DNA of 64,000 nucleotides, from contig JAGVXT010000023.1 of the NCBI GenBank assembly GCA_018303655.1, forward strand, positions 30,394-94,393, in the 5' to 3' direction. The notes beneath the pieces were generated by a model. That model did no database searches and was not told the origin of the DNA. It worked only from the letters and a program-made list of their open reading frames with translations. Below are positions 4,210 through 38,369 of this stretch, one piece after another. A program made the translations under genes and the position numbers. This DNA comes from Candidatus Woesearchaeota archaeon (lineage in GTDB: Archaea > Nanobdellota > Nanobdellia > Woesearchaeales > GW2011-AR4). The stretch's first letter is position 1; each line of letters begins with the position of its first letter.

Positions 4210-4315
4210 AGCAAATATGTATGCTTTCCTGATTTAAAAATTTAATGTTTAGTGTTGGCATTGTGGTTACAAAGATTTATAAATCAGTAAATAACTGTGC
4301 ATGAAGGTGGTTTTG

Positions 4316-4870: not shown

Positions 4871-4871
4871 G

Positions 4872-9937: not shown

Positions 9938-9987
9938 TTATACTTCAAAGTTTTCAAAGAAAATAAAAACTTTGGAGGTTGATAAAA

Positions 9988-11130
9988 ATGGATTTAGTAA
10001 AACTTAAACAGTTGGATGAAGAAAAGACTCGGGAATTTCATTTATGGGATTTTCAAGATAACTTATTTATTCTTTTGGACAAAGAAGCTAATGACAGATT
10101 TTTCAAAATAATGTATAATCAATTCGGAACTCAACAAGAGTTTGCTAAATTTTTAGGACTATGGAGACAAGAGGTAAATAAATATCATAAACAATTACTT
10201 AAAGACAATGGAAGATATTATCCAGTTTACTTCCCTATTAGATTGTTCAAAAAATGTGTGCCTATTTTAGATAAAGAGTTTATTTGTTATCTAGAACAAA
10301 ATGTATCAGAAATAAGGGCAAGGGTTGGACTAAGTGTCTATAACCCAAAACTTCCAATAAGAGAATCTCAAGAAGTTTATCGAATATTAGCCCACATAAT
10401 AGCAGATGGTTCTGCGAGCAAAGGTAAAACTCCGTACTATGCTAATACTTGTAAGCAGTTAAGAGAACAATTTAAAAAAGACTTAGCAATTTTTGGAGAG
10501 ATGAAAATTTATGAGAGAAAGCCACAAGTAACTGAATTAGTGTTTTTTCCTAAAGTTGTTACAGATTTATTAGCTTCATTGTTTGATATTCAATTTACCT
10601 ATCCAAATAGAATTCCAAAACTTATATTTACAGCTTCAGAAGATTTAAAAAAAAATTTCTTGCAAGCTCTATTTGACGATGAAGGTACAATTTCTGCTCA
10701 ATTAGCTTTAACTATACACAACGTCAGGATAATGGAAGAAATAAAATCCTTGATTATTTCTTTAGGTATAAATGTTAGTAAAGTTATGGTGTATTATTAT
10801 TCTCACAAAACAAATAAAGTATATTTTCAAATTTCCAAGAAAGATTACGAATTGTTTCAAAAGAAAATAGGTTTTAGCCATCCAGAAAAAGCTAAAAAAT
10901 TGGAATTAGCAATAAGAACTCAAAATAGAGAACAAAGGACAAGAAATCCAAATTATATCGAGCAAGAAATTATAAAAATTTTAGAAATGAAGCCTTCACC
11001 CACAATGGAATTGGCTAATAAACTTATGTTAACAATAATGGGAATTAAACCACATCTTGACAGAATGCTTGAAGAAGGCTTAATAATCAAAAGAGGTTAT
11101 AAGAATAAGGTTATTTGGGATATTGCCTAA
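9988..11130 (+). CDS. free-standing double-motif LAGLIDADG homing-endonuclease-like protein with C-terminal winged-helix
   Basis: Motif 1 LAHIIADGSAS and motif 2 LQALFDDEGTI. GGAGG Shine-Dalgarno 9 nt before the ATG at 9988. Visibly more AT-rich than its neighbours. Confidence 0.75.
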   Translation: MDLVKLKQLDEEKTREFHLWDFQDNLFILLDKEANDRFFKIMYNQFGTQQEFAKFLGLWRQEVNKYHKQLLKDNGRYYPVYFPIRLFKKCVPILDKEFICYLEQNVSEIRARVGLSVYNPKLPIRESQEVYRILAHIIADGSASKGKTPYYANTCKQLREQFKKDLAIFGEMKIYERKPQVTELVFFPKVVTDLLASLFDIQFTYPNRIPKLIFTASEDLKKNFLQALFDDEGTISAQLALTIHNVRIMEEIKSLIISLGINVSKVMVYYYSHKTNKVYFQISKKDYELFQKKIGFSHPEKAKKLELAIRTQNREQRTRNPNYIEQEIIKILEMKPSPTMELANKLMLTIMGIKPHLDRMLEEGLIIKRGYKNKVIWDIA

Positions 11131-11185
11131 AATTCTGTTACTACTTACCAAAACTTATTTAAACAAAACTTCTATCTTCTGTTTT

Positions 11186-12076
11186 ATGGAAAAGGCCTTG
11201 GAAACAAGGGAAAGGATTGTTGAAATTGTAAAGCAAAAAGGCCCTGTGCTGCCTGTCCATATTTCAAAAGAGATAGGCAGTGATATTCTGATGGCAAGCG
11301 CGCACCTTGCAGAGCTCACTGCAAGCAAAAGGCTTAAGATTTCAACAATAAAGGTAGGAGGGTCTCCTTTGTATTATCTTCAAGGACAGGAAGAAATGCT
11401 GCAGAAGTTCATAGGCAGCATGAATGACAAGGAGAAAAAGGCATTTGACTTGTTAAGCCAAAGCAAGATATTGAGGGATGCTGAGCAGGAGCCTGTGGTA
11501 AGAGTTGCATTGCGCGAAATCAAGGACTTTGCAATTCCATTGAATGTCACGCATAACAACAACAAAGAAATGTTTTGGAAATGGTACTTGGCAAATAATG
11601 AAGAAGCTGAAGGCCTTATAAAGCAAAAATTGCAGATTCTGGAAAAACCGATAGAAAGAAAGGTTGAGCAAGAAACAATAAAAAGACAGGAAGAAAAACC
11701 AATACAACTAACCCAAAAACAAACAAAAGAAAAAACAACCAAGAAATACAAGCCAAGGGACAAGGAAGACAATTTTTTAAAGGACATTATGAGATTCTTT
11801 GAAAAAAACAGGATAAATGTAATAAGCAGCGAGATAATAAAAAGGGATTCGGAAATAGACTTTTTGGTTGAACTGCCAAGTGTAGTGGGAAACCTGCAGT
11901 ATTACTGCAAGGCAAGAAACAAGAAAAAAATCAGCGATTCTGATTTAAGCAACGCATATGTCAAAGGCCAGTTCAAGAAACTGCCTGTGATTGTTCTTTC
12001 TCCTGGAGAGTTGTCATCAAAAGCGCAGGAAATACTGGCAAAAGAATTAAACAATATAACGTTCAAGAAAATATAA
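11186..12076 (+). CDS. winged-helix DNA-binding protein with C-terminal PD-(D/E)XK-like domain (function unknown)
   Basis: Two wH-like segments (IVEIVKQKGPVLPVHISKEIG..., KKAFDLLSQSKILRD), a Lys-rich linker, and a C-terminal EIDFLVE...YYCKARNKKK block. Start set at the ATG at 11186. Confidence 0.4.
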   Translation: MEKALETRERIVEIVKQKGPVLPVHISKEIGSDILMASAHLAELTASKRLKISTIKVGGSPLYYLQGQEEMLQKFIGSMNDKEKKAFDLLSQSKILRDAEQEPVVRVALREIKDFAIPLNVTHNNNKEMFWKWYLANNEEAEGLIKQKLQILEKPIERKVEQETIKRQEEKPIQLTQKQTKEKTTKKYKPRDKEDNFLKDIMRFFEKNRINVISSEIIKRDSEIDFLVELPSVVGNLQYYCKARNKKKISDSDLSNAYVKGQFKKLPVIVLSPGELSSKAQEILAKELNNITFKKI

Positions 12077-17914: not shown

Positions 17915-19693
17915 TTAAGCTACAAAATCCCCGTCTTTTAGAATCCAGTGCTTGTTGCCATTTTTGTCAATCCCGTATACATCAATCTTCTGCCTTGGGG
18001 CATTGAAAACAATGTCCATATGGTATTCTGTGCTCCTGTCAGGCTCGAAACCGCTTCCAAGCGCAATGTGCATCATTCTTGCTATTTTCTCGTTAACAAT
18101 AAGGTATTCGCACAATCTCGCCTTTGGGTTGGTGTTGATTGCGAACTCTCCAATTCTTTCAAAATTATTCTTTTTTAAATTGATTATTTCCTGGGGAATG
18201 CTCTTGTTCTTTTCAGCCTCAAGCAGTAGCTTCATTGCCTCGTCTTTTCTTTTTTTGATTTTATCGATGATTTCCTTTGGTCCATTTGTTATCTTATAGC
18301 TGTCACCATAGCACTCAACAACCAACGGGTTTTTTTCATTTAATGAATAGCTCTGGTCAACATGAACAACAACATCCCCCACAAAGATTCCTTTCATGTA
18401 CTCCGGAGTTGTAAATGCCTCTCCTCCTGGAATGTTGCCCATGCAGCCTGCCCTTATGCCTGTCATTTTCAAGTATTCCCTGTTTAGCTTTTCTTTTACA
18501 TCGGTATCGCTTCTTCTGACCCATCTTCTTGAGCCGTCTTCTTTTATCAATCCAACTTCAAGCTTTGTGACATATTTTTCCTTTAGCTTGCCTTCCACAT
18601 GGATGACATCGCATTTGTCCATTATATCCTTGACTTTCTGGTTTCTTGCCCTTATGTCACTCCAATCAACCAAATTCGTCTCGATAAAAATGTCAATCGG
18701 TATTGTTTCTGTAAAGGCAACCCTTGCCATTGGATCTCTTTTATCATACTTTGTTTGAGGATAGAAATCGAGCTTGTAAATCATCTGTCCGGGAGTCTGC
18801 CATCTTGTTTTTTTATTTGGAGAAGGATATCCAATAATCTCTCCAAAAAGATGCTTTCCGGGATACCCTTTTGCGCTTATTGAAAAAGACAAGTCTATGG
18901 GTTTTATTCTGTCGAGCTTCAGCAATTGTGATAATCTTTTGTATTTCTTAAATGGCCCCTCATCAATGTCCTTTGACAGCTCACATCCAAGCAATGTTGC
19001 CCTTAATTCAGAAACTCTTTCGCTTTTCTCGAGCATGGAGCCTCTAAAAGTGCAGGCATTCATTGTTGGATCCGCGGTTTTTTTTGCGGTTTGCGTCATT
19101 GCCCATATTATGGAGTAAGAGTCAAGATAATCCTCCAAAGGGTGCCCCATCAAATCTTTTGTTGGAATAAGCGTGAAGCCGATGCCTACCCTCTCGCCTT
19201 TTTTCAGAGCATATACCTCTCTCCAAAGAATTTCGGCAGTCTGCATCAGCTCTTTCATTCTGTAGTCATTAAACCACTCTGTGTGGAAAGGCAATTTTAA
19301 TGCGCCTTCAAAATTGTCTTTTCCGGCTTCAAGAATAAAATCCGGCTTTTTGAACAGTTTTCTGAATTCTCCTCTGGCTTTTTTATCAACTTCCTGAATA
19401 AATTCTCCTAAAGCCTTTGTTTTTTCATTTTTTATTCCTTTCTCCAGTTCTTCAAAGCACTGCCACACATCCTTTAGGGCTTCCAGCCCTTCTGATTCAC
19501 CATTTATCCCCACGCAGCTTACATCCGCACCTAATTCATGAAGCGCCCTTGACAAAGGCGCCAATGTGTAGAAATCATTCCTGTTGATTATATCAAATGT
19601 TATAAAGAAAGATTTGTTCTTGGCATTTTTTATTATTTTTTTATAATCGCTGACAGCAGAATTAAATTCATTTTCGTTGTATTTCATGAGCAT
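17915..19693 (-). CDS. M29-aminopeptidase-like protein with large unrecognised N-terminal region
   Basis: The C-terminal half has GNIPGGEAFTTPE, EFAINTN, HIALGSG and HMDIV blocks parallel to the neighbouring M29 gene. I do not recognise the N-terminal ~350 aa. Confidence 0.5.
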   Translation of the reverse strand: MLMKYNENEFNSAVSDYKKIIKNAKNKSFFITFDIINRNDFYTLAPLSRALHELGADVSCVGINGESEGLEALKDVWQCFEELEKGIKNEKTKALGEFIQEVDKKARGEFRKLFKKPDFILEAGKDNFEGALKLPFHTEWFNDYRMKELMQTAEILWREVYALKKGERVGIGFTLIPTKDLMGHPLEDYLDSYSIIWAMTQTAKKTADPTMNACTFRGSMLEKSERVSELRATLLGCELSKDIDEGPFKKYKRLSQLLKLDRIKPIDLSFSISAKGYPGKHLFGEIIGYPSPNKKTRWQTPGQMIYKLDFYPQTKYDKRDPMARVAFTETIPIDIFIETNLVDWSDIRARNQKVKDIMDKCDVIHVEGKLKEKYVTKLEVGLIKEDGSRRWVRRSDTDVKEKLNREYLKMTGIRAGCMGNIPGGEAFTTPEYMKGIFVGDVVVHVDQSYSLNEKNPLVVECYGDSYKITNGPKEIIDKIKKRKDEAMKLLLEAEKNKSIPQEIINLKKNNFERIGEFAINTNPKARLCEYLIVNEKIARMMHIALGSGFEPDRSTEYHMDIVFNAPRQKIDVYGIDKNGNKHWILKDGDFVA

Positions 19694-21350: not shown

Positions 21351-23720
21351 TCACAATTCCCCAACTTTTTGCTCAAGAATTCTTGCTATTTCCTTATATG
21401 GCTTGTTGGTTATTTCACTTGGGTCAATCAACTTCCCAAAAGTAACGCTTGTTTTTCCAAATTTAGGTATTGTTTTTCCTATTGGGAGGACTTCAAAGAG
21501 GCCTTTTAGCCTTACTGGCACTATGGGGATTTTCATGCTTGTTACTATAAGTCCCACTCCACTTTTAAATTCGTGTATTTTACCGTCCAATGTCCTCTTC
21601 CCTTCGGGGAAAAATATTACAGAAAATTTCCTGTCCATCATCTCACCCATAAAATCCATACTTTCATCTATTCCGATAGTGGCTCCAAATGGGAAGGCAT
21701 TATATGAAAAGATACTGTAGTAGCCCAGCATTTTTTTCAAATTCCTCTTAATAAATCCCTTGACTCCAATGCCAAATACAACCACGCCATCTGCTGCAAC
21801 TGCCAAAGGGATTTTAATGTGTTTAATCATTAAAGGCACATCGAATGCACTTTGGTGGTTGCTTACAAATATTACAGGATATTTTATGCCTTCGAGATTA
21901 TCAAGCCCAAAATATTGCGTTTTGGTAAAAAATCTGGCTATTGGAAAAACGAGCAACTTTTGGTAAACTTTCCTTAACACCTCAAACAATCTCGTAGTAG
22001 GCCAAGATCGGAACTTTATGCGATAAACAACTCTTTGGTTTGTGAGCTTTTCAAGATCAAAAACTGTTGTATTTTGGTCCAATTTCATTTCATCTATCTC
22101 GACATCAAAATGATTTTCCAGCTCTGTAATGAGTTCAATCCTCTTTAGAGAGTCCATGCCGATATCAACAAGATTGGAACTCTGGTTGATTTTTTTACCC
22201 GGCACGAGTATCTGATCTATGATTTTGAACAGTTTCTTTTCATACGAGAATTTTTCCAATGCTGCCCTATTGCTGCCTAGTTCCTTCATTAATATAAACT
22301 TTTTAACCTTGCCAGTTGGAGTTTTTGGAAATTCATTTTTCCAAACAGTATAACCTGCAATTTTCTGATGACTTAGCAATTTCTCATTCGCCTGCTTTAT
22401 TATTTCCTTAGGGTTTTTTCCCTCTTCAAGGATTAAGATTGCTTGCACTTTATTGTCTTTTTGGACAACACAGCTTTCCTTCACGCCATTTATTGAATTG
22501 AGTACAGGCTCTATGTCCGAGGGATATGCCTTCAAGCCGCTTGGGGTTATGATGATATCTTTCTTGCGCTCTTTAATGTAGAGGTAATCATCCTTTATCT
22601 CGCCGACGTCGCCTGTCTTAAACCACCCATTTTCAAAAGATGCCTTTGTTTTTTCTTTGTCGAGGTAGTAGCCTATTGAAATGTTGGCTCCCTTGACTAG
22701 AATCTCTTTGTCAGGACCAAGCTTGACGCTTATCCCATAGGCTATTTTGCCGGCACTTCCAGTTCTTGATGCGAAAGGCGCATTGATGCTGACAACAGCG
22801 GCTGTCTCTGTCAAACCATACCCTTGCAGCACAAAAATATATTTCCTCTTCCACCACTTTTCTACCTCGGGTTCCAGGGCAGCGCCTCCCACGCCTATAA
22901 TCCTAAATTGAATTCCAAGATTGCATGCAACACACTTGTCTTCCAAATGTTCTCTCAGATTTGCCAAAATTCCCGGCACAAAGATTGCTGCGTGGATTCT
23001 TTTGTTTCTTATAAGGGCAATCAATTTTCTAGGCTGTACCGTATCGGTAAAGAAAACGTTATAGCCAAAATGAAGAGGCAAAAACAAACCCATTATTTGT
23101 GCAAATATATGGCTTAGCGGCAGAACATTCAGAAATCTCAAGTGCAGCCTTATATTGATTGTTTTTACAGCAACCTGCACAGCCGTATAAATGTTGTCAT
23201 GGGTTAATATAACACCTTTTGGGTCTCCTGTTGTGCCAGAGGTGTATTGTATTTCAATGATATCATTTGGCTTAATTTCAGGATATGGGATTTCTTTAAA
23301 TACTCCATCGTCTAAGTGGTTTTCAAGCTCTTCCAAAAGATAGCTCTTTACATTTCTGATTGAATGATTGATGAATTCTCTTTGAAAAATTGCCTTTGCG
23401 TTAACCTGATTGTTTATTTTTTTAACGAGCTTTTTATCTGACATAACATCAAGCGGCACCACAATAATTCCAGACAGGATGCATGCCAAATATACTACAA
23501 CCCACTCTATTGAGCTGTATCCCAGAATTATTATTTTATCTCCTTTTTTTATTTTGTTATTGTCAAGAAAAATCCTTAGTTTTTGGATTTTTCCATGTAA
23601 CTCATTGCCGCTGACATGCCTTGTCCTATATCCTATTTTTTGGCTGTACAGCGTCCTTTGGGTGTTTGATGATATGGCTTTCAGAATAAGCTCTTGCAGA
23701 GGGGAAAGCTTTTGACTCAT
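21351..23720 (-). CDS. tri-domain protein: acyl-AMP ligase / carrier protein / PlsC-type acyltransferase
   Basis: Adenylation motifs YTSGTTGDPKG, GYGLTETA, WFKTGD, PKTPTGKVKK (aa ~60-480). Carrier motif GMDSLKRIEL with Ser523. Acyltransferase HX4D NHQSAFD (aa 621-627), FPEGKRT, IPIVPV. Confidence 0.85.
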   Translation of the reverse strand: MSQKLSPLQELILKAISSNTQRTLYSQKIGYRTRHVSGNELHGKIQKLRIFLDNNKIKKGDKIIILGYSSIEWVVVYLACILSGIIVVPLDVMSDKKLVKKINNQVNAKAIFQREFINHSIRNVKSYLLEELENHLDDGVFKEIPYPEIKPNDIIEIQYTSGTTGDPKGVILTHDNIYTAVQVAVKTINIRLHLRFLNVLPLSHIFAQIMGLFLPLHFGYNVFFTDTVQPRKLIALIRNKRIHAAIFVPGILANLREHLEDKCVACNLGIQFRIIGVGGAALEPEVEKWWKRKYIFVLQGYGLTETAAVVSINAPFASRTGSAGKIAYGISVKLGPDKEILVKGANISIGYYLDKEKTKASFENGWFKTGDVGEIKDDYLYIKERKKDIIITPSGLKAYPSDIEPVLNSINGVKESCVVQKDNKVQAILILEEGKNPKEIIKQANEKLLSHQKIAGYTVWKNEFPKTPTGKVKKFILMKELGSNRAALEKFSYEKKLFKIIDQILVPGKKINQSSNLVDIGMDSLKRIELITELENHFDVEIDEMKLDQNTTVFDLEKLTNQRVVYRIKFRSWPTTRLFEVLRKVYQKLLVFPIARFFTKTQYFGLDNLEGIKYPVIFVSNHQSAFDVPLMIKHIKIPLAVAADGVVVFGIGVKGFIKRNLKKMLGYYSIFSYNAFPFGATIGIDESMDFMGEMMDRKFSVIFFPEGKRTLDGKIHEFKSGVGLIVTSMKIPIVPVRLKGLFEVLPIGKTIPKFGKTSVTFGKLIDPSEITNKPYKEIARILEQKVGEL

Positions 23721-27425: not shown

Positions 27426-27457
27426 GGAAGTTTTAGAATAAAAAGGTTGTGGTTTAT

Positions 27458-27489
27458 ACCACTGGACATCTTCGCACAAACTTTATAAA
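27458..27489 (+). promoter_or_regulatory. conserved upstream motif + TATA box (copy 2)
   Basis: ACCACTGGACATCT, a 10-nt spacer, then TTTATAAA. The ATG of the Cas4-like gene lies about 23 nt downstream, so the transcript is likely leaderless. Confidence 0.45.
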
Positions 27490-27511
27490 CCCATTTCTTA
27501 GCTTGTTGTGT

Positions 27512-28363
27512 ATGAAAATCTCAGTTTCTTTATTATCATCTTATCTGTACTGCTCGAGAAAGCTGTTTCTTGAAAAGGTTTTGCTGCTGGAAGAGCCTCC
27601 TAAGGAGAGCATTGTAATGGGCTCAATTAGGCATGAAACCTATGACAATATAAACAAAAAGGAAGGGGAAATTGTGACTTCTATAACAGAAAAACATGAT
27701 TCAGAGCATATACAGGCTCTTTACAAGCAGAGATATCTTCAGATTTTAAGGAAAGCAATAGCCAGCAATAAAAAAAGGCTGGAAGAGGTCAATATCAACA
27801 TGCTTGAAGCCTACAGAAAGAGCTTTCCGTTCATCATGGAAGAGTCTTCGGTAAGGTCAGACAACATTGTTAATTTTATAAAATCAAACAACGTCTTTGG
27901 AGAGGAATTATGGCAGAAACTTACTCCAAAGATAATATCGGAATTAAGGGTTGAATCTGACGAATTAAAATTAAAAGGAATTATAGACAAGGTTCATGTT
28001 TATGATAATGAGTATGTGCCTTTTGAGCTCAAAACAGGCAGAACTCCAAGTGATGGAATTTGGCCATCTCACAGAATCCAGATAGCAGCTTACTCATTGC
28101 TTTTGCAGGAGAAATTCAACAAACAGGTAAAAGGGGGATTTGTTGTTTACCTTGACACAAAGGAAAAAAGGCACATTGCTATAAATCCTTTCATGAAGCA
28201 GGAGATAAGGCAGTTAGTTGATGAAGTTATAGCGTTGCTTGAAAGCAAAGAACTGCCAGATTTCTGCAATAATGAAAACAAATGCAAAAAATGCGGCTTA
28301 AAGCAAACCTGCTATAATGAGGAAGAAGTGAATAATTTACTAAAAATCAAGGTTAGTGGTTAA
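27512..28363 (+). CDS. Cas4-like / RecB-family PD-(D/E)XK exonuclease with 4-Cys cluster
   Basis: N-terminal Cys (LSSYLYCSRK), core IDKVHV ... PFELKTG, C-terminal CNNENKCKKCGLKQTC. Start set at the ATG at 27512. Confidence 0.7.
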   Translation: MKISVSLLSSYLYCSRKLFLEKVLLLEEPPKESIVMGSIRHETYDNINKKEGEIVTSITEKHDSEHIQALYKQRYLQILRKAIASNKKRLEEVNINMLEAYRKSFPFIMEESSVRSDNIVNFIKSNNVFGEELWQKLTPKIISELRVESDELKLKGIIDKVHVYDNEYVPFELKTGRTPSDGIWPSHRIQIAAYSLLLQEKFNKQVKGGFVVYLDTKEKRHIAINPFMKQEIRQLVDEVIALLESKELPDFCNNENKCKKCGLKQTCYNEEEVNNLLKIKVSG

Positions 28364-29290: not shown

Positions 29291-30253
29291 ATGGAACAAA
29301 ATAGCGCTCTGTGGACCGAGAAGTACAGGCCATCAGATTTCTCTGATATAAAAGGCCAGAAAGAGATAGTCAAAAGAGTCAAGGCTTTTGTGGAGCAGCA
29401 AAACCTGCCACACTTGCTTTTTGCAGGGCCTGCAGGTGTTGGAAAAACAAGTTTGTCTTTGGTGATAGCAAAAAAGCTATTCAAGGACCTATGGAGGCAG
29501 AATTTTCTTGAATTAAACGCTAGTGATGAAAGGGGAATTGACATAATAAGAAACAAGGTAAAAGACTTTGCAAGGACAAGGGCAATTGGAAATGTGCCGT
29601 TCAAGATAATTTATTTGGATGAATGTGATGCCCTGACAAGAGAGGCGCAGCAGGCATTGAGAAGGACAATGGAAAACTACACTCAAACGTGCAGGTTTGT
29701 TCTTTCTGCAAACTATTCATCAAAAATAATCGAGCCTATACAAAGCAGGTGCGTTGTCTTCAGGTTCAAGCAGCTGGATAAGAAAGATATCATAGAAATC
29801 ATTGAAAAAATCTCAAAGGATGAAAAATTAAAAATTGATGAAAAAGCCAAAGAAGCCTTGTATGAGATATGCGAAGGCGACTGCAGAAGGCTTGAAAACA
29901 TACTGCAAAGCTCGGCTGCAATAGCCGACCACATAACAGAAGATTTGATTCATTCAATGGCTTCTGTTGCCAAGCCAAAGGAGATAAAACAAGTTTTGGA
30001 GCTTGCATTAATCAATAATTTTATTGAAGCCAGAAACAAGCTGCTGGACTTGATGCTGAGCTATGGATTAGCGGGCATTGACATAATAAAGCAGATTCAA
30101 AAGGAGATATTGGAGCTAAACATTGACAACAAAGCCAAGATGATTCTCATAGAGAAGTGCGGTGAAATAGAGTTCAGAATGACAGAAGGATCTGATGAGT
30201 TTGTCCAGTTAGAGGCTTTGCTAAGCCAGTTTGCATTGGCCGGGAACAGCTAA
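29291..30253 (+). CDS. rfcS: replication factor C small subunit
   Basis: WTEKYRP, GPAGVGKT, YLDECDAL, SRC motif (IQSRCVVFRF). No intein. Confidence 0.9.
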   Translation: MEQNSALWTEKYRPSDFSDIKGQKEIVKRVKAFVEQQNLPHLLFAGPAGVGKTSLSLVIAKKLFKDLWRQNFLELNASDERGIDIIRNKVKDFARTRAIGNVPFKIIYLDECDALTREAQQALRRTMENYTQTCRFVLSANYSSKIIEPIQSRCVVFRFKQLDKKDIIEIIEKISKDEKLKIDEKAKEALYEICEGDCRRLENILQSSAAIADHITEDLIHSMASVAKPKEIKQVLELALINNFIEARNKLLDLMLSYGLAGIDIIKQIQKEILELNIDNKAKMILIEKCGEIEFRMTEGSDEFVQLEALLSQFALAGNS

Positions 30254-31296
30254 GAAGCAACTCCGCCTTCTGTTGCCAAATGCTTTACAAGAACCTTAGT
30301 TTCTTTATTGTCAAGGACATTATATAAAAGCCTTATGCCAACAGTTTTCTCCAAGTCAAGCCTGTCTGTTGCCAAGTCGGCTGTGCAGGTTATTGTTCTC
30401 TTGCCGCTTACTAATTTGACAACTCCCTTATGACCAGCATCTAGACCACCGCATTTGGGGTTTGAAAAAACCGGATCAACTGGCATCTCAAGGATTTCAA
30501 CGCCAACATTGCTTTCGCGCTCCCTTCTTGCCCTTGGGTCGCGAGGGCATCCAGTGTCAAAGCTGGATGGCTTGCTTTCCTGCTTGTCCCAGAATATGTC
30601 CACATTGCCGCTCAAGCTGATGTCAAAGCTGAAAGAAAGCTTGTCCTTACCTACCACAGTCTGCCTGAAATTGCTTACTTGCACAGGAGCTGCTGAGCTG
30701 TAGACTGTCCTGCTTGATGTAGGCTTGCAAAGGCTGTCGTCCCTTACATTTATCATATCCTTTAATACACAAACCTTTGTATTTGCCTCTGTCTTGTAAT
30801 GGTAGCAGGCATCTGCCCTGAAAGTGAATTCTGTGTTGCCGCTGAATTTTCTTGGATTAAAAAAGGCGCCTGTTCCGCCTTTTGGGAATGTCGCGAATGT
30901 TGTTGTACCATCCACAATGTTGCCCTCTGCATCCCTCTTTTTTGCATCCAAAAGGTCTTCTGGCTGCTGGTCTTTCAAGTCTTCAAAATTTTTGCCAAAA
31001 TCGTTTGGGTCAAATCCGACAAGGTTTAGCTTTATATCATTCTTTTCAACCTTTGCTTCACCATCATTTTTCAACCTTACAATCGCATTAAATGAAAATG
31101 ACTCATCATCAGTCACTTCTGGCGGTGGTGAGTCTTTCTCAAAATTTATTGTGATTCCTGATGTTCCTCCTATGAAAGGAGTTCTAGGAGCTCCTCCTGC
31201 AGACGCTCCGCTTTTTTTGCATGCAGAAACCAAAAGAATCAGGCAAATAAGCAATGCAACAGCATAATATCTCTTGTTCATATTGCCTCTTTTCAT
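30250..31296 (-). CDS. secreted lipobox protein, paralog 3 of unrecognised family
   Basis: Signal peptide ending in LLVSAC. Shares the motifs GITINF..SPP, RLKNDG, ACYHYKT..VCV, AAPVQVS, TITC and RLLYNV with the two upstream genes. Alternative ATG at 31281. Confidence 0.6.
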   Translation of the reverse strand: MKRGNMNKRYYAVALLICLILLVSACKKSGASAGGAPRTPFIGGTSGITINFEKDSPPPEVTDDESFSFNAIVRLKNDGEAKVEKNDIKLNLVGFDPNDFGKNFEDLKDQQPEDLLDAKKRDAEGNIVDGTTTFATFPKGGTGAFFNPRKFSGNTEFTFRADACYHYKTEANTKVCVLKDMINVRDDSLCKPTSSRTVYSSAAPVQVSNFRQTVVGKDKLSFSFDISLSGNVDIFWDKQESKPSSFDTGCPRDPRARRERESNVGVEILEMPVDPVFSNPKCGGLDAGHKGVVKLVSGKRTITCTADLATDRLDLEKTVGIRLLYNVLDNKETKVLVKHLATEGGVAS

Positions 31297-31343: not shown

Positions 31344-32423
31344 CTATTGAGGCCCGTACCATTCAGAAGAAGGTGAGCTAGTTGAAGGTGTTGACACACC
31401 ACTGCTTCCTCCCAACCCGCTTACTTCTTGCTTTATCTGAATTTTTTTTTCTATGCTGTTTCTGTAGATATATACTAAACTAATAGTCATCGGCGTTATA
31501 TATGCTGTTTTGCTTCCGTAATCTGAGCTTGGCAATTCACATATCACAAAGCCTTCTCCATTAATCAGCCTTACATCACCGCCCCTGCCTCTCGCGGCAC
31601 TGCCGCCTGTATCCGTGAATGGCCCGCATGTGAGCTCTTTGTTTCCTATTCTGACTTCCTGGAGATGTACCCTATCCACTTCTTCTCTTAATATTTTTTC
31701 GCCTGAAGGCCCGCATTTGTTAAGCATATCATACTTTATAACTTCGCCATTTCCTGCATTTTTAATCGTTATCTTAAATTGTGTTTTTGTTGCAAAGGCT
31801 TCTTCATCTATTTTTGTTATAGCTACAGGGGCGCCTTGGCTTGACAGGGAAATATCCTGCACTTGGCATACTTTCTTTTCATTTGTAGTTGAATAGGGAT
31901 TTGGATCTATGCATACTGACGGGCCGGCAACTGTCTGGTAGAAATAACAAGCTGTTGCAAGTAAAGTCGGCTCGTACTTATCCACATTTAAATTGTCGAC
32001 TTGGATAACACCTTTGAATGTTGCTATATCAAGGCCGCCATTTGGGTTTATAGTGCTTTTGCCTTCCAACGCCTTTCTGTTTGTATCTTGGATATTGGTG
32101 TCTCTGAAGTTTATAATGTTTGGATCATAACCACTTAAATAAATTTTACCATCTGGTGCTGTGCCTTCGTTTGGCTGGGGGAAGGCTCCTTTATTTCTCA
32201 TTTCCAAAACAACTTCAAAACTATTGGCATTTTCACCAGCCCCTTTTTCAACGTGTATTGTTGTGGGCGGCGCATTAGCCAGAAAATTCATAGTAATTCC
32301 TTCTGTTCCTGTTCTTATCTCCTCCAAGGATTTTTCGTTGCTTTTTTTGCCTTTGCACCCGGAAATCAGGATTAATAAAGCAATAAACAAGATAAAAACC
32401 AGCCTTTTTTTCAATTTTATCAC
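31344..32423 (-). CDS. secreted lipobox protein, paralog 2 of unrecognised family
   Basis: Signal peptide ending in LISGC. Motifs GITMNFLANAPP, EMRNKGA, ACYFYQT..VCID, KKVCQVQD, GAPVAITKI, VICE, SLVYIY. Ser/Gly-rich C-terminal tail. Confidence 0.6.
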   Translation of the reverse strand: MIKLKKRLVFILFIALLILISGCKGKKSNEKSLEEIRTGTEGITMNFLANAPPTTIHVEKGAGENANSFEVVLEMRNKGAFPQPNEGTAPDGKIYLSGYDPNIINFRDTNIQDTNRKALEGKSTINPNGGLDIATFKGVIQVDNLNVDKYEPTLLATACYFYQTVAGPSVCIDPNPYSTTNEKKVCQVQDISLSSQGAPVAITKIDEEAFATKTQFKITIKNAGNGEVIKYDMLNKCGPSGEKILREEVDRVHLQEVRIGNKELTCGPFTDTGGSAARGRGGDVRLINGEGFVICELPSSDYGSKTAYITPMTISLVYIYRNSIEKKIQIKQEVSGLGGSSGVSTPSTSSPSSEWYGPQ

Positions 32424-32462: not shown

Positions 32463-33467
32463 TTATCTTGCTGTTTTTTGTGTTAAGTAACTGGCTGAGA
32501 TTGATTGTGTATATCCATAAGTCATGTCTATCCTGAGTGGCTTTAGAAACGGGTCCTGGTTGTTTTGGATTCCTTCCTTGAAAGCGCACCTTATAATGTC
32601 TTTTTTGTCTTTAAGTTTTACATAGCCTTGTTTTTCTTTGTTGCCTTTTTCTTTTGGCTCGCAGTCAAGCTCTTCTCCCAGACCTGTGCCTGGGAAAAAT
32701 GCCTTTACGGTTATTGTGTTGAACTTGTCGCTGCTTACTTTTCCCTGTGTGCAGAATTCTTTTACAGCATCGTTCTTTATAACAATGCCTGTTCCCTTAT
32801 TCTCAACATAAATCAAAAATTGGGGAGTTATTTTTCCGGAATCCTGGCTTGGAAGCATCTGGACTTCTATTTTGCTTATTGCAACCGGAGCGCCCTGGCC
32901 GTTTGCAAATGCCAAGTCCTGCAGTTTGCATACTTTTTTTCCAGGCCTTAAATTGTTTGGATCTGTGTCCATGCAGAATGTTGCATCTAATACAGTTTTG
33001 TAAGGATAGCATAATGTTGCAATTGCAGCTGAGCTGTGGAATTCGCTTTGGGGGTCAACTTTTCCTGCCACAAGATTGTAGCTTATAACTTCCTCTCCCC
33101 CTTTTTGGTTTATTATGCTTTTTCCCTCTATGCCAAAAGAAGCGATATTGTTAAGTCCTGAAAGCGGTTGCACATTTCCGCTCGTCAGCAATTCTATATT
33201 TTTAGTGTAATCCTTTTCAAATCCAATGGATATAAACGCTGCATTGCTTTTTATGTCGGCAGCCCCGGAATTTCTTACTTTTACCACAACAGGAAACTTG
33301 TCGCCTTCGAAAATTCTTTGAGGCGGGGTGTTCTTGAGGAACTCCATTTTTAGTCCATCAAAGCCTACTCTCACATCTATGTCCTGTGTCTTTTTAGTGG
33401 AGGTTCCTGTGCAGCTTATTATAAAAATAATCAATAACGAAGTTATAAGAATTGTTTTTTTGTGCAT
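32463..33467 (-). CDS. secreted lipobox protein, paralog 1 of unrecognised family
   Basis: Signal peptide ending in FIISC. Motifs GLKMEFLKNTPP, KVRNSGA, LCYPYKT..FCMD, KKVCKLQD, GAPVAISKI, IIRCA, DMTYGY. Confidence 0.6.
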   Translation of the reverse strand: MHKKTILITSLLIIFIISCTGTSTKKTQDIDVRVGFDGLKMEFLKNTPPQRIFEGDKFPVVVKVRNSGAADIKSNAAFISIGFEKDYTKNIELLTSGNVQPLSGLNNIASFGIEGKSIINQKGGEEVISYNLVAGKVDPQSEFHSSAAIATLCYPYKTVLDATFCMDTDPNNLRPGKKVCKLQDLAFANGQGAPVAISKIEVQMLPSQDSGKITPQFLIYVENKGTGIVIKNDAVKEFCTQGKVSSDKFNTITVKAFFPGTGLGEELDCEPKEKGNKEKQGYVKLKDKKDIIRCAFKEGIQNNQDPFLKPLRIDMTYGYTQSISASYLTQKTAR

Positions 33468-33482
33468 TTTTGAAAATTATGA

Positions 33483-36400
33483 TTATTTAGTCATGTATTC
33501 TTTTGTTCCAGAATATTGTCCTTCATTGTTATATGCATAAACAGTATAAGTATATGGTTTTCCTACTATTAATTTTAGTCCGCCGTAATCAAAACAATAA
33601 TTGCCTGAGCCATCTTCTTTGATATCCTGGCAGCCTTGTACAATAACCTCTGGTTCGTCTGCAGAAAATCTTGTAACATCATAACTAATTACCTTTGGAC
33701 TAGACGGTTTATCCCAGCGAATTGTAACCACTTGGGTTTGATAATCGTAAGAAGCACGCACAATTATGGGTGATATATCTGGAATATTCTGTGTGTCTGT
33801 TTGCCCACTTTCTGATTCAATGCGTATAAACTGTACATCTTCTTTAGATAGATAATCTCCAATACCTGATTTATCAATAATTACACCATTCTTAATCTTA
33901 TTGGCTGTGTCCAAAATTTTTTCAACATAGTTTATAGTGCCTTCTACACAGCCATTAAAGCATTTATTGTAATCTTTTGAATTTGCGCATGCCTTTTGAC
34001 ACTTCGCTTCTGGTCTGCATCCCCATCCATTATATGCTCTTAATGTGGCTTTTATGTCCCTGTAGCTTAAATATTTCTGATGCCTATCTTGATATTTCCA
34101 TTTGGGGCAGAATGGCTCAAGACTTGAAGAACTTATGCCTCCTTTAGATTTCTGATATTTTTCGTTTAATAATTTTAAGCCAACTTTTATATTGCACTCT
34201 TTATTATAAATAGTTTGTCCTTTAGTGCAAATAGTTGATAAACCTTCATGAATCTTATTTACCTGCATTACACCAACGCTAGTATCATCATAACTCGTTA
34301 AAATTTTATCAGGTCCACAAGAAGTATCCTCACTTGCTTTGCAATCACTCCAATGATTTTTACCGCTTTCTGCGCAGCAATGCCTCCATCTGCTTTCAGT
34401 AAGAGTCAATGCAGAGATTAAATCCATACTCAAACCTGGGAAGTAAATGTCTGTTCCTGGTTTGAATTCTATAGCAGACTTTGTAATCCAATCAGGGACC
34501 GTTTCCACTAATTGCACAGGAAGCTGCTCAACATTAACAGTCACAGAATTCTCGAGCAGATAGTTATATCTCGCCCTAACCCTGAAATACCTTGTTGTTA
34601 TTGGTGAATCACCAAGCACTGCCGAACTTGGCTCGAACCTGCACACAAAGCTTCTGGACTTGTCTATGTCCTTGTTTAAATCCTTGAACTGCTTGCTGCC
34701 GACATCAAGCGCATACGCATTGTATTTTTCTTGAGTAGAACCTTCTCCTTCATTGGTTTGGAACAAAAAAGCGCATTCTTGATTGCACTTATCAAAAACA
34801 GTTTGGCATTCCTTTATGCAATTGTTCTTATTTTCATCAGAGCCACCTACATTGCTACAAGCTACTGTACAAGGAACTACAACATTATTAGTACATGAGC
34901 CAAAACAATCAGTTAATTCATACTTCTTAAACGGCATGCTGCAGGGGCATTCCAATTTTTCCAATTCTGTTTTTGGGTCTTCACATTTTTCAAGCTTATC
35001 GGAAGTGCCAAGTGTAATTCCGTATGGCGTCAGTAAAATTAATTCTGTTATGTTTTTTATTTTTCCTTCCCATCTTGTGATAATTTTCTTATCTTTGTCC
35101 TGAATTTCCTTTCTGTTGGTTAGTGTAATGCCTATGATCGGCTTTATGGCATAGCCTTCGCTTACTGTAACAAGAGGACCTACGCCTAAGCCGATTTCAA
35201 CAGGCCCGTTTGTGAAAACTGCTGCAGGAGTCTTGTCTTTTATCCCAAATTGTGTCAATGGATCAATTCCCTCTCTTGAACTTGCCCTGAATCTTTCCCT
35301 GTCCATAAAGTATGTTTTCAGATAAGAATCGGTGCCAAAATTATACTCTGCTGATAATGTAACTATATTAGCTCCTGCTGGTATTTTGTTTTCATCTTTT
35401 GGCAGGAACGTGCATTGGGTGTCAACTTCCTCCAATGTGAATATTGGGAATTTTATTTCTGGTATTATCTTATCTGCATATATCCTTTTACTGTCTTTCC
35501 ATCTGCTGCAGTTGAAGCTCACAATTACTGCATCTTTGTATGTTTTGCTCCTTATAGTGCCCCACACAGTAATCGGCTCGTCAGTATAAAATCTTGGGTC
35601 AGAAGCCCTTATATTGCCGAAATAGACTCCAAGGCTTTCATATCTATTTTTTTCAACGTTGCCCCTGTACAGGCCTGCTGTGGCGATGTCAAGCCTGCCT
35701 TCAATGAACCCTTTTAGGTTGGCTGTAAATGAACTGTAAAACTCTGTGAATGTTGTACCTTGTTTTGCTATGTAGGGGATGGTATTTGTTTCAAGCCCTG
35801 CAACATTTACAGTCATTATTAAAAAAAATGTTACCAATAAAATAAATGCCATCACAGGATAAGTTGCTTTTTTCTTGCCATCAATTTCATTCGATTCTTT
35901 AACATAGCAATAGGGAATTACAAATAATGTAAGCGGTGGAATAAACTTCAAAAATAAATACTCAGAATTCCATAAAAACCCATACCCAAAAAAATCAATT
36001 ATCAGAAGACTGGGCATGTAGAGATATGTTAAATAAGGTTGTGTTCTTTCTTTTTGCTTTATATAAACAAATCCAAAAAAAATGATATATATTGCATGAA
36101 GCCATGCCCTTATGTTGCCCTGCCATCCATTATTGAGCCAAAAAAATGAAAAAACAAACATTGCATAAAGCGAAGAGAAAAGCCCCGCGACTTCACCCTC
36201 CTTATAGTTTCTATCAAATTTCCATACCAACCATCCTAAAAACAAAAAAAGCAAAATCATCCCATATTGACCTAATGGTATTGAAAAACTTATGTTTAAA
36301 TAAGATGGAAAAATTTTTGGAATGAAATAATTTGATATAATAATTATGCCAAATGCGAGTATAAAAGCTCTGTATTCTTTTTCTATTATTTTAAAAACCA

Positions 36401-37091
36401 TGTTAATATAAAACAATGCAAAAGTAAAACTAGAAGTTAGCACTGGCAGCAAACTTAAGGATAAAAGACCTAGTGGAGGTAATTCAAACCCCCTATATGG
36501 TGGCCAACCCGGTATAAGCCAAGCCGGTGCCATGTCTAGCAGCCAAATAGCAAGGACTCCTGCGATGAAAAATCTTGAAATTTCATTTTTAGTAAATCCT
36601 GTAACAAGCCCCCATCCAATGAAAATCACTATTATAATTATTGCTAGTAACCCTACTATTGTAATACCAACACCAAGCACAAAAGTACGAAACCCATAAA
36701 TATTCTTATAATACGCTGATATAAACAAAATCAACCCCAGTAAAAACCACGCCCAAAAAGTCTTGCTTTTAGCTGTGTTAATGGTGATTTCTGTTGCGCG
36801 GTTTATAAGTGCATCTTTTTTTTCATTTACTGTGTTTCTTGCTCCTTGAATTCTGCCGCCTAAAGTTTGCCTTTGCCTTTCTTCTTGCCGATCTTCTTCT
36901 TCAATCCTTCGTCTTTCTATTTCCTCTTGTCTTTCTCTTGCAGATTCTGCTCTTTCTCTGGCTGCTGCTTCAGCTTGTTCTCTTGATAAGGCAAGTCTTT
37001 CACGCTCTAAAGAAAGTCTTCTCCTTTCAGCTTCTGCTGCCTCAGCCGCTTCCCTTCTAGCTCTTTCTCCTGGGGTTTCACGACGTGCCAA
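33483..37091 (-). CDS. 1202-aa envelope protein: Arg/Glu coiled-coil, ~12 TM helices, paralog-like ectodomain with Cys-rich insert, SLT lytic transglycosylase domain, FN3
   Basis: TTG start 6 nt after a GGTGA Shine-Dalgarno, with no in-frame ATG nearby. SLT motifs LTESRW, GVMQVN and AYNGWG at about 34020-34440. The C-terminal ~95 aa look FN3-like (WDKPSSPKVISYDV...YTYTVYAYN). Confidence 0.7.
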   Translation of the reverse strand: MARRETPGERARREAAEAAEAERRRLSLERERLALSREQAEAAARERAESARERQEEIERRRIEEEDRQEERQRQTLGGRIQGARNTVNEKKDALINRATEITINTAKSKTFWAWFLLGLILFISAYYKNIYGFRTFVLGVGITIVGLLAIIIIVIFIGWGLVTGFTKNEISRFFIAGVLAIWLLDMAPAWLIPGWPPYRGFELPPLGLLSLSLLPVLTSSFTFALFYINMVFKIIEKEYRAFILAFGIIIISNYFIPKIFPSYLNISFSIPLGQYGMILLFLFLGWLVWKFDRNYKEGEVAGLFSSLYAMFVFSFFWLNNGWQGNIRAWLHAIYIIFFGFVYIKQKERTQPYLTYLYMPSLLIIDFFGYGFLWNSEYLFLKFIPPLTLFVIPYCYVKESNEIDGKKKATYPVMAFILLVTFFLIMTVNVAGLETNTIPYIAKQGTTFTEFYSSFTANLKGFIEGRLDIATAGLYRGNVEKNRYESLGVYFGNIRASDPRFYTDEPITVWGTIRSKTYKDAVIVSFNCSRWKDSKRIYADKIIPEIKFPIFTLEEVDTQCTFLPKDENKIPAGANIVTLSAEYNFGTDSYLKTYFMDRERFRASSREGIDPLTQFGIKDKTPAAVFTNGPVEIGLGVGPLVTVSEGYAIKPIIGITLTNRKEIQDKDKKIITRWEGKIKNITELILLTPYGITLGTSDKLEKCEDPKTELEKLECPCSMPFKKYELTDCFGSCTNNVVVPCTVACSNVGGSDENKNNCIKECQTVFDKCNQECAFLFQTNEGEGSTQEKYNAYALDVGSKQFKDLNKDIDKSRSFVCRFEPSSAVLGDSPITTRYFRVRARYNYLLENSVTVNVEQLPVQLVETVPDWITKSAIEFKPGTDIYFPGLSMDLISALTLTESRWRHCCAESGKNHWSDCKASEDTSCGPDKILTSYDDTSVGVMQVNKIHEGLSTICTKGQTIYNKECNIKVGLKLLNEKYQKSKGGISSSSLEPFCPKWKYQDRHQKYLSYRDIKATLRAYNGWGCRPEAKCQKACANSKDYNKCFNGCVEGTINYVEKILDTANKIKNGVIIDKSGIGDYLSKEDVQFIRIESESGQTDTQNIPDISPIIVRASYDYQTQVVTIRWDKPSSPKVISYDVTRFSADEPEVIVQGCQDIKEDGSGNYCFDYGGLKLIVGKPYTYTVYAYNNEGQYSGTKEYMTK

Positions 37092-37196: not shown

Positions 37197-38369
37197 TTAA
37201 GCCAGTTCTATCTTTAGTTCAACAACTTCCATGTCTTCCAGAGGCTCGAGCCTCAGGTAATTGTTGCCTTCTGAAATCCTGCTGTTGATGTTCTTTGAAA
37301 ATGCTGCCTTGTCTGTTTCTATGGTTTCAATGTGCCCGTTGACATCAAGCTTTGCCCTTTTCTGTTTGTTGTCATCTACAAGCTTGATTGTCAATACCGC
37401 ATCATCATTTCCATTTCTTATGCTTTGGAACGCATCGCTGCTTACCTCAAAGAAGTATGTCTTTACAGCAGGCTCTTTGAACTCAAGAGCAATTCTTATC
37501 TGCTCTACAGAGTAGCTGCCTTTGGATGTCTTGAAAACAATGTTGTTCTCGCCTTCGTTCAATGCGCTTTTCGGCACGCTCTGCCTGTAGGCATTGTCGC
37601 ATACAGGAACTGAGGAAAAGAGCTTTTTGTTGTTTATATAAATATCAAGCGTTCCAAGATCATTCACATTGCCGCAGTATGGTATGAACTTGAGTGTGGC
37701 TTTGTCCATGCTGGAAAATTCTGAATCGCTTAATGTAAAGAGGTTTGTGCTTTCCTGTTTGCTTGTGTCTGTGATGTCGCCGATTATCCTAACGTTCTCA
37801 AGGCTGTACTCATTTGTTGTCCAGAACTTTAAACCGACAGAAGAAACGCTGAACTCAAGCAAATTTGTCTTTTGAAGCAGTTTCTTGTCAAGCTTTACAG
37901 GCTCTATAATTTCGCTTGTTAATTCATTCTCAAAAACAATCACATTATTCAGCTTTATGGTCAAAATGCCTTCTCTTTTCTTTGCTGTGAAGGAAACAAC
38001 TACATTGTCTGTGTTGTCGGGGTCTTCAAGCCAGAAATCAATCTTCTTTGCTTTTTTGTCAAACCATCCGCTTCTTACAATGAAAGGGTTTATCTTTTCC
38101 ATCTCCTTTGCATTGGTTGTCTCCACCAAGAATATGTTCGGGATTTCTTTCTCGTCTTCTAAGTTGCTGGATGTGCTGAGCATTCCCGGAAATGCCTTTA
38201 ACAGCACATTAGATGTGTCTCCTCCTGAAGTTGTCTCTGTTGCCCTTTCTTCAATAAGCTTCTTTCTTTCAGAGCTTGGCAAAAATACAATATAAAGAAT
38301 GATCAAGCCGGCGATGATAGCGACTAAAACCGCTGCATTCATGCCTCCTTGTGACTTCTTATGCATCAT
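37197..38369 (-). CDS. N-terminally anchored surface protein with three internal beta-rich repeats
   Basis: MMHKKSQGG followed by a 22-aa hydrophobic helix (anchor or class-III-like signal). Three ~85-aa modules each end in an ENVRI / EQIRI / ELKIE-type strand. Confidence 0.55.
   Translation of the reverse strand: MMHKKSQGGMNAAVLVAIIAGLIILYIVFLPSSERKKLIEERATETTSGGDTSNVLLKAFPGMLSTSSNLEDEKEIPNIFLVETTNAKEMEKINPFIVRSGWFDKKAKKIDFWLEDPDNTDNVVVSFTAKKREGILTIKLNNVIVFENELTSEIIEPVKLDKKLLQKTNLLEFSVSSVGLKFWTTNEYSLENVRIIGDITDTSKQESTNLFTLSDSEFSSMDKATLKFIPYCGNVNDLGTLDIYINNKKLFSSVPVCDNAYRQSVPKSALNEGENNIVFKTSKGSYSVEQIRIALEFKEPAVKTYFFEVSSDAFQSIRNGNDDAVLTIKLVDDNKQKRAKLDVNGHIETIETDKAAFSKNINSRISEGNNYLRLEPLEDMEVVELKIELA

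Follow-up and report, generated by a model that had tools for sequence, protein, structure and literature searches.

Why does an archaeon, belonging to a domain in which we know of no murein synthesis, carry a gene for an enzyme of the murein-cleaving type? The question is raised by a 1202-amino acid (aa) open reading frame (ORF) at positions 33483..37091, minus strand, of 64,000 nucleotides of Candidatus Woesearchaeota DNA (assembly GCA_018303655.1, contig JAGVXT010000023.1, positions 30,394 to 94,393), the whole stretch analysed here and called the window below. This ORF encodes a membrane scaffold plus a hydrolase module, and its product is predicted from the sequence to be a surface-tethered lytic-transglycosylase-type muramidase that would be catalytically competent. 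The explanation that we favour, and which we consider fairly probable, is that the tethered enzyme acts on the walls of bacteria touched by the cell, within an envelope assembly of five proteins.

The hydrolase module and its signature motifs are located as follows.

33849-34487, minus strand: Cys-rich SLT / lytic-transglycosylase module, aa 869-1081 (Pfam SLT, hhalign and AlphaFold2, AF2)
34386-34412, minus strand: ALTLTESRW motif, aa 894-902, the catalytic Glu-Ser block
34395-34397, minus strand: codon for E899, predicted to be the catalytic Glu, within the T-E-S-R-W motif and conserved in orthologs
34248-34277, minus strand: VGVMQVNKIH motif, aa 939-948, the G-x-M-Q block (G940-V-M-Q943)
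34020-34043, minus strand: LRAYNGWG motif, aa 1017-1024 (A1019-Y-N-G-W-G1024)

A first-pass annotation made from the sequence alone had reported the three SLT/GH23 signature blocks in the right order, with Cys-rich insertions between them. All three were found, at aa 894-902, 939-948 and 1017-1024, in a module of 213 aa that contains 12 Cys. The interval it had given, 34020-34440, corresponds to aa ~885-1025 and covers the motifs; the whole module is longer. As judged by profile searches, the SLT assignment is borderline for the query alone and firm at the family level. The full 1202-aa protein scored 17 bits with Pfam SLT (PF01464; E 0.0045), under the 21.3 cut-off, and the isolated module scored 21.3 bits (E 2e-4), exactly the gathering cut-off. 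The profile check that the annotation had proposed was positive for the family, since 22 of 26 orthologous modules matched (best E 1.5e-8), and stayed borderline for the query. A profile of the Cys-rich modules aligned by hhalign with canonical SLT modules of the same family at 98.7% probability (E 4.7e-16), with the E-S and G-x-M-Q columns in register; these canonical modules, carried on orthologous scaffolds, match Pfam SLT at 2.4e-17. Loss of the catalytic Glu in orthologs had been named beforehand as a possible refutation. The residue is kept in 77 of 78 representatives and in all 26 sequences of the module alignment. Among the same 78, Ser or Thr follows the Glu in 76, G-x-M-Q positions are kept in 74-78 and Y-N-G positions in 66-74. 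This near invariance of the Glu and of the other active-site motifs indicates selection for catalysis. A lytic transglycosylase and a goose-type hydrolytic lysozyme are not separable at this level.

The predicted fold was examined in turn. The AF2 model of the module (predicted local distance difference test, pLDDT, 91.4) is helical and places E899 at the C-terminal end of a helix. Its top ~30 Foldseek matches in the PDB were all lytic transglycosylases (Slt70, MltF, MltE, LtgA, MltD and DslA), and the top matches in the viral collection BFVD were tail lysins and LT_GEWL virion proteins. Each structural match is individually weak, so that the fold evidence is consistent with the assignment and not decisive. 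The SLT/GH23-type assignment of the first-pass annotation was upheld by the family-level profile matches, the near-invariant Glu and the top ranks of lytic transglycosylases in the fold search. As in Slt70, MltC/D/E/F and LtgA (PF01464, GH23), the E-S, G-x-M-Q and A-Y-N-x-G motifs occur in the same order; like these family-1 lytic transglycosylases, which are also its top structural matches, the module has, in the model, its catalytic Glu at a helix end and a helical fold consistent with the all-alpha lysozyme type. In contrast to them, its sequence has diverged widely, with scores no higher than the Pfam cut-off, and it carries 12 Cys and long insertions that include a CxxxC-rich loop before the final helix. 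Family-1 enzymes are periplasmic or lipoproteins, whereas the archaeal module is fused to a scaffold of 11 transmembrane (TM) helices, in a host that presumably lacks murein of its own.

The first-pass annotation had held a bacterial or phage origin of the domain to be probable. A tblastn search of 50,697 phage genomes gave no matches, and a module profile search returned just three further proteins. The Cys-rich SLT subtype seems to be an old feature particular to the lineage and not a recent acquisition. P0117, a distant scaffold representative, carries a degenerate Cys-rich SLT module in which Gln replaces the catalytic Glu (…AMAAQSKFIHC…), and which, from this substitution, may be an inactive, binding-only variant. 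P0053 (381 aa) and P0054 (282 aa) consist of an N-terminal TM helix and a Cys-rich SLT signature (…RAYNGWGC…YVEK…), and have no large scaffold.

The remainder of the 1202-aa protein is divided as follows.

36795-37091, minus strand: N-terminal Arg/Glu-rich segment, aa 1-~99, variable between orthologs (alignment)
35796-36770, minus strand: polytopic membrane domain of ~11 TM helices, aa ~108-432 (hydropathy, AF2 helices)
34512-35699, minus strand: conserved ectodomain core of tandem Ig-like beta-sandwiches, aa ~465-860 (alignment, AF2)
34773-34907, minus strand: helical hairpin with four CX3C motifs and eight invariant Cys, modelled by AF2 as a pair of long antiparallel helices
33513-33746, minus strand: C-terminal FN3-like domain, aa ~1116-1193 (Pfam fn3, sub-threshold in the query, E 0.011)

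The first-pass annotation had counted about 12 TM helices, close to the ~11 obtained here from hydropathy and AF2, and had the SLT domain displayed externally. An Arg/Glu-rich N-terminus followed by ~11 TM helices places the C-terminus outside the cell. The C-terminal ~770 aa, which form the ectodomain including the SLT module, hold 28 of the 29 Cys of the protein; together with the TM arrangement, this argues for outward display. The N-terminal segment is probably a cytoplasmic coiled coil. There are 30 Lys or Arg among the first 137 aa, and the PDB sequence matches of this segment were confined to low-complexity Glu-rich regions. Conserved polar residues of the TM domain in the ortholog alignment include D186, S220, N254, H332 and D366. 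The ectodomain core contains near-invariant blocks such as RLDIATAGLYRGNVEKNRYESLGVYF. Its AF2 block-mean pLDDT values are mostly ~72-92, with one block at 65, and the AF2 model of the scaffold is moderate overall (pLDDT 74.7, predicted template-modelling score 0.51). The Cys of the four hairpin motifs are C729/C733, C741/C745, C758/C762 and C769/C773; putative disulfides would make the hairpin a stapled, rigid stalk element. Pfam fn3 was matched by 10 of 23 orthologs (best E 1.4e-5), and the C-terminal domain is probably an adhesion or spacer module.

By all the searches made, this scaffold of ~11 TM helices, Ig-like domains and CX3C hairpin matches no known family. Searched against Pfam at E <= 1, the scaffolds of 23 full-length orthologs yielded only compositional TM noise (DUF2207_C, 7TMR-DISM), and the whole-protein profile gave only low-complexity or FN3 noise against PDB sequences. 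The TM domain had no match in Pfam, NCBIfam, PDB sequences or PDB folds, and Foldseek with the ectodomain returned generic Ig-like matches only (transglutaminase barrels, MSCRAMM adhesins, C3 and RbmA). A GT-C glycosyltransferase or AglB/STT3-like TM domain was considered and rejected, as neither a Pfam or NCBIfam profile nor a fold match in the TM region was obtained; a weak Foldseek match (E 5e-3, template-modelling score 0.12) concerned the soluble Ig-like part of Pyrococcus furiosus STT3.

The scaffold gene is the second of five minus-strand genes that lie between the plus-strand genes of RFC and Pelota. The other four are given here.

37197-38369, minus strand: up390, first gene of the operon, 390 aa, N-terminal TM anchor and ectodomain
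32463-33467, minus strand: predicted lipoprotein paralog A, 334 aa, directly downstream of the scaffold gene
31344-32423, minus strand: predicted lipoprotein paralog B, 359 aa (paralogy, lipobox and conserved position)
30250-31296, minus strand: predicted lipoprotein paralog C, ~348 aa from an internal Met (paralogy)

The lipoproteins are related to one another (A and B at E 8e-30, C at E 2e-12) and have an invariant lipobox Cys. The ectodomain core was not detectably homologous by BLASTP to the three lipoproteins or to up390. None of the five operon proteins matched NCBIfam, lipoprotein B gave no family match, and PDB sequence searches with two partner proteins returned low-complexity or FN3 noise only. 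Among 24 up390 orthologs, 18 gave sub-threshold matches to PF14683, a carbohydrate-binding module (CBM)-like family, with best E 1.8e-4, which is a weak hint that the up390 ectodomain may be a glycan-binding, CBM-like or lectin-like jelly-roll. An archaeal class III (pilin-type) signal peptide was rejected for up390 by inspection of the consensus, its N-terminus KKAQGG-x-NAA being a misfit to [KR][GA][ALIFQ][ILMVTAS].

The order up390, scaffold, three lipoproteins recurred without exception in the 36 loci that had enough flank, usually between the same flanking genes, and held even where scaffold identity to the query was 30-40%. The partners are themselves conserved, with ranges that leave out two to four distant loci per partner: up390, directly upstream of the scaffold gene, is 26-91% identical, or 50-91% outside two distant loci, and lipoprotein C, the most conserved of the three, is 44-86% identical outside a few, a level that holds even where the scaffold is merely 34-40% identical. 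Gene order and flanks that recur across related loci indicate that the operon is chromosomal and vertically inherited, and not a mobile island. Two metagenome-assembled genomes (MAGs) each appear to hold two divergent copies of the operon: JACPMR (L022 and L029) and JACPMV (L028 and L035), with scaffold identities to the query of 55% versus 35% and 44% versus 30%. Either these are real duplications with different tips or the bins are mixed. At 27449-28363 on the plus strand lies a stand-alone gene for a Cas4 / PD-(D/E)XK nuclease without CRISPR-cas neighbours; its place beside RFC is syntenic in the related loci L001, L003 and L005. In L005 (11499-14063), the RFC small-subunit gene beside the operon encodes 854 aa with an intein, compared with 320 aa and no intein in the window.

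A type IV secretion system (T4SS) or Ced-like conjugation machine with a VirB1-like enzyme was considered for this locus and rejected, because no ATPase or pilin gene is present. No VirB4/VirD4-type ATPase, VirB6-like protein or pilin was found: the operon consists of five envelope proteins and the flanks are Pelota and RFC. The arrangement recalls phage tail lysins (PRD1 P7) and VirB1-type enzymes in that a muramidase is mounted on a larger structure, where it would open a local hole in the sacculus on contact. Unlike them, the archaeal gene is chromosomal and syntenic across species, outside any virus or secretion locus, with no ATPase, pilin or tail genes nearby.

If the module faces outwards, what is its target? 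The most informative evidence came from the scaffold family, which comprises 763 cluster representatives at E <= 1e-3 (270 at E <= 1e-30), all from Woesearchaeota-type MAGs where named. Among representatives that extend to the scaffold end, 166 have a tail of at least 60 aa; their module classes are distributed as follows.

Cys-rich SLT: 78 of 166 representatives
Canonical SLT: 28 of 166 representatives
GH73 glucosaminidase (Pfam E ~3e-17): 15 of 166 representatives
Unclassified by local profiles: 45 of 166 representatives

A Pfam scan that covered 23 of the 45 unclassified tails revealed three more SLT modules, one of them accompanied by Amidase_3, and one phage-tail lysozyme (PF18013). The junction between scaffold and module is sharp and falls right after the conserved ...RARYNYLLENSVTV block of the ortholog alignment. 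To compare module class with scaffold kinship, we took the nearest neighbour by core identity for 126 representatives: in 45 of them, the closest relative so defined bears a module of another class. The cores of P0035 (canonical SLT) and P0013 (Cys-rich SLT) are 91% identical. The query core is 72% identical to those of the GH73-tipped P0004 and P0039, and 52% identical to that of P0050, which bears the query's own module type. As far as these sequence comparisons go, module class does not follow scaffold relatedness.

Such repeated replacement of the tip on a conserved delivery scaffold is a pattern typical of target-facing effectors ('warheads'). In Rhs and contact-dependent inhibition (CDI) polymorphic toxins, too, a conserved N-terminal scaffold delivers a C-terminal effector that has a sharp boundary and is often replaced. 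Unlike in these systems, no immunity gene accompanies the scaffold, which is not homologous to Rhs or CdiA, and the effectors are almost all wall hydrolases instead of nucleases or other toxins. A producer that lacks murein would not require an immunity gene.

The module classes cut different bonds, namely MurNAc-GlcNAc, GlcNAc-MurNAc and MurNAc-L-Ala (MurNAc, N-acetylmuramic acid; GlcNAc, N-acetylglucosamine). Bacterial murein is the sole substrate common to canonical SLT, GH73, phage-tail lysozyme and Amidase_3 modules. In addition, cleavage by a lytic transglycosylase depends on the C6-OH of MurNAc, a group absent from the talosaminuronic acid of pseudomurein. Since the alternative modules share only murein, and given this C6-OH requirement, it is unlikely that the module has been re-targeted to pseudomurein or some unrelated glycan. 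Between the two options left by the first-pass annotation, action on bacterial walls or re-targeting to another glycan, the comparison of modules favours the first.

Taken together, these results suggest the following mechanism. The Arg/Glu-rich N-terminus would lie in the cytoplasm and ~11 TM helices would anchor the protein, while a rigid extracellular stalk, made of the Ig-like sandwiches and the CX3C hairpin, would hold the SLT module and the terminal FN3 domain off the membrane. The TM-anchored, weakly CBM-like protein and the three paralogous lipoproteins would be its partners and probably work jointly with it. On contact with a bacterium, the module would cleave MurNAc-beta-1,4-GlcNAc bonds of the sacculus, with E899 as general acid/base, as in family-1 lytic transglycosylases. 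Such a local opening of the wall might serve attachment or penetration, or free wall material for uptake. A wider version, in which the five-gene operon is a lineage-wide Woesearchaeal machine for the contact-dependent breaching of bacterial walls, with hydrolase tips swapped to match the wall chemistry of the partner, is put forward tentatively, as a possibility to which we give less than even weight.

Several observations weigh against action on bacterial walls. The query protein by itself is borderline with Pfam SLT, and PDB sequence searches with the module alone and with the module profile gave no matches. The Foldseek matches are individually non-significant, none reaching E <= 1e-3, with best E 0.24 in the PDB and 7.7e-3 in BFVD and template-modelling scores of 0.3-0.43. 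To reach the sacculus of a diderm, a tethered enzyme would have to cross the outer membrane. Conservation is higher in the four partners than in the scaffold, which fits a housekeeping machine of the envelope more readily than a device for host interaction. A minority of scaffolds carry non-hydrolase tips (a few beta/gamma-crystallin domains, one propeller, or FN3 only), and Amidase_3 and the phage-tail lysozyme were each found in a single representative.

Four other explanations were weighed. According to the first, which we consider unlikely, the enzyme serves nutrition: it would free anhydromuropeptides from walls or debris, which the fused membrane domain or another permease would import to feed an archaeon unable to make amino sugars or amino acids. 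Salvage of wall fragments was also listed in the first-pass annotation, and the scheme resembles the cleave-and-import recycling of bacteria by lytic transglycosylases and AmpG. The conserved polar or charged intramembrane residues D186, N254, H332 and D366, which are unlike a passive anchor, fit this scheme, as do the metabolically reduced genomes of DPANN archaea. Muramoyltetrapeptide carboxypeptidase (LdcA), a murein-recycling enzyme, is reported to be abundant in Pacearchaeota genomes (PMC11537232). However, the searches with the TM domain gave no match to a transporter in either fold or family, no ldcA, nagZ, anmK or ampG-like genes were present in the operon or seen in the window, and rapid swapping of tips is what one would expect of target matching more than of scavenging in bulk. 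Salvage is also compatible with contact-dependent action on bacterial walls, and the two are not mutually exclusive.

The module might instead be an antibacterial weapon, released by proteolysis or on vesicles to lyse competing bacteria at a distance, comparable to the peptidoglycan hydrolases that haloarchaea secrete or to the Aciduliprofundum GH25 lysozyme. Module swapping resembles the diversification of polymorphic toxins, and small stand-alone TM-anchored proteins with Cys-rich SLT exist (P0053 and P0054). Archaeal peptidoglycan hydrolases have also been found to kill bacteria experimentally (PMC12352652). Against release, the module is covalently attached to the 11-TM scaffold in 178 of 178 representatives reaching the scaffold end, and neither a cleavage site nor a secretion signal was found where the two join. 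A bacteriocin would not usually be encoded in an envelope operon of five genes that is so strictly conserved, and we regard this explanation as quite unlikely.

A third explanation is kept alive by how well the partners are conserved (50-91% identity between divergent species, two distant loci excepted): the hydrolase would remodel the archaeon's own envelope glycan, a murein-like or GlcNAc-rich polymer, for growth, division or the insertion of surface structures, as a bacterial autolysin does. In its favour, the operon lies on the chromosome between housekeeping genes and is inherited vertically; SLT, GH73 and Amidase_3 make up the classic bacterial autolysin set; and some GH23 enzymes are active on chitin-like substrates. 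Against this, no archaeon is known to us to make murein, murein-synthesis genes were not found in the 64-kb window, and a full-text literature search found none reported for Woesearchaeota. Moreover, that enzymes cutting different bonds replace one another on scaffolds with as much as 91% identity does not sit easily with a fixed endogenous substrate. Self-remodelling therefore appears very improbable. Finally, the idea that the SLT fold is kept merely as a glycan-binding module for attachment, as scaffolds ending in pure binding domains (beta/gamma-crystallin, FN3, propeller) and the Gln of P0117 might suggest, has hardly any weight in view of the almost invariant catalytic Glu (77 of 78) and other active-site motifs, which indicate selection for catalysis.

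The archaeal origin of the protein, as stated in the first-pass annotation, is borne out by the gene content of the window and by the scaffold loci. The window encodes archaeal Hef, a fused PriS-PriL primase, FEN1, RFC-S, Pelota and PheRS, as well as a ribosomal-protein cluster with L32e, S4e and SecY, and is a DPANN-type archaeal chromosome of a Woesearchaeota. We identified 51 orthologs of the 1202-aa protein, of ~1000-1250 aa each. Named ones come from Candidatus Woesearchaeota, and some are already called 'transglycosylase SLT domain-containing protein' by NCBI. When one genome was scanned for each GTDB species, 31 scaffold loci were found, all in Woesearchaeota-type MAGs; some of the bins bear the placeholder title 'Methanosarcinales' and one short contig is labelled Aenigmatarchaeota. 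Many GTDB-representative bins with the operon are titled 'uncultured Methanosarcinales archaeon' (L009, L011, L014, L016-L019, L024-L026, L031, L033 and L034), titles that look like placeholder or mistaken taxonomy.

Other genes of the window were recorded in passing.

3364-5768: LemA-family gene between two M48 metallopeptidase genes, on opposite strands
6188-7537, plus strand: one 449-aa ORF matching the small and large primase subunits, a fused PriS-PriL
9979-11130, plus strand: free-standing ORF with a LAGLIDADG-like homing-endonuclease domain
11123-12076: 317-aa ORF following the LAGLIDADG-like ORF, no family match
17915-19693, minus strand: 592-aa ORF without a Pfam match, between M29-like peptidase and MFS/ATG22-like transporter genes
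21351-23720, minus strand: 789-aa fusion of AMP-binding (acyl-activating), phosphopantetheine carrier and PlsC-type acyltransferase domains

The 789-aa fusion resembles bacterial Aas-type enzymes for the recycling of fatty acids and lysophospholipids and is unusual in an archaeon; it may be relevant to the use of bacterial lipids.

How much of this is new? The first-pass annotation had rated the novelty of its observation too high. The core finding is a rediscovery, because both the lytic transglycosylases of this lineage and the idea of bacterial hosts are already published. Murein-like lytic transglycosylases of Woesearchaeota and Pacearchaeota were reported, with a proposed action on bacterial walls, by Castelle 2021 (PMC8204110), which cites earlier sightings in Rinke 2013 and Castelle 2015; Vigneron 2022 (PMC9723730) reported GH23 genes in Woesearchaeota MAGs and proposed predation on bacteria; and later surveys repeat the lytic-transglycosylase point for this lineage. 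The protein described here, a Woesearchaeota product of 1202 aa with a ~770-aa ectodomain that includes SLT, is like the large extracellular lytic-transglycosylase proteins described in Castelle 2021, and family fam00969 of that study may be this one. Among other archaea, Strock 2025 (PMC12352652) showed that haloarchaeal peptidoglycan hydrolases kill bacteria experimentally.

The Woesearchaeal enzyme shares with those of Halogranum salarium and with the Aciduliprofundum GH25 lysozyme an archaeal origin and a presumed aim at a polymer that only bacteria make. These other enzymes are small and secreted, belong to other hydrolase families and come from non-DPANN archaea, whereas the present one is membrane-tethered, encoded in an operon and found in a lineage with reduced genomes. 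The Aciduliprofundum lysozyme was reportedly described by Metcalf in 2014. What is added here is the unmatched scaffold, the strictly conserved five-gene operon and the exchange of C-terminal wall hydrolases. A keyword look-up found no mention of the 11-TM scaffold, the five-gene operon or the module exchange in the parts of the published accounts that it reached.

These observations bear on whether the abundant and tiny Woesearchaeota depend on bacteria, on archaea or on neither; we know of no member cultivated with a defined partner. Of the genomic hints at a relationship between archaeon and bacterium, a conserved, outward-facing enzyme predicted to cut murein is the most direct, and a defined scaffold with four fixed partners and exchanged tips makes the question of the host more testable. 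The operon could be used as a marker, and the module type is a possible predictor of the wall type of the host. If the operon is indeed a lineage-wide machine for breaching bacterial walls, a major DPANN lineage would live on Bacteria rather than on Archaea, and the operon would provide a molecular handle for finding its hosts.

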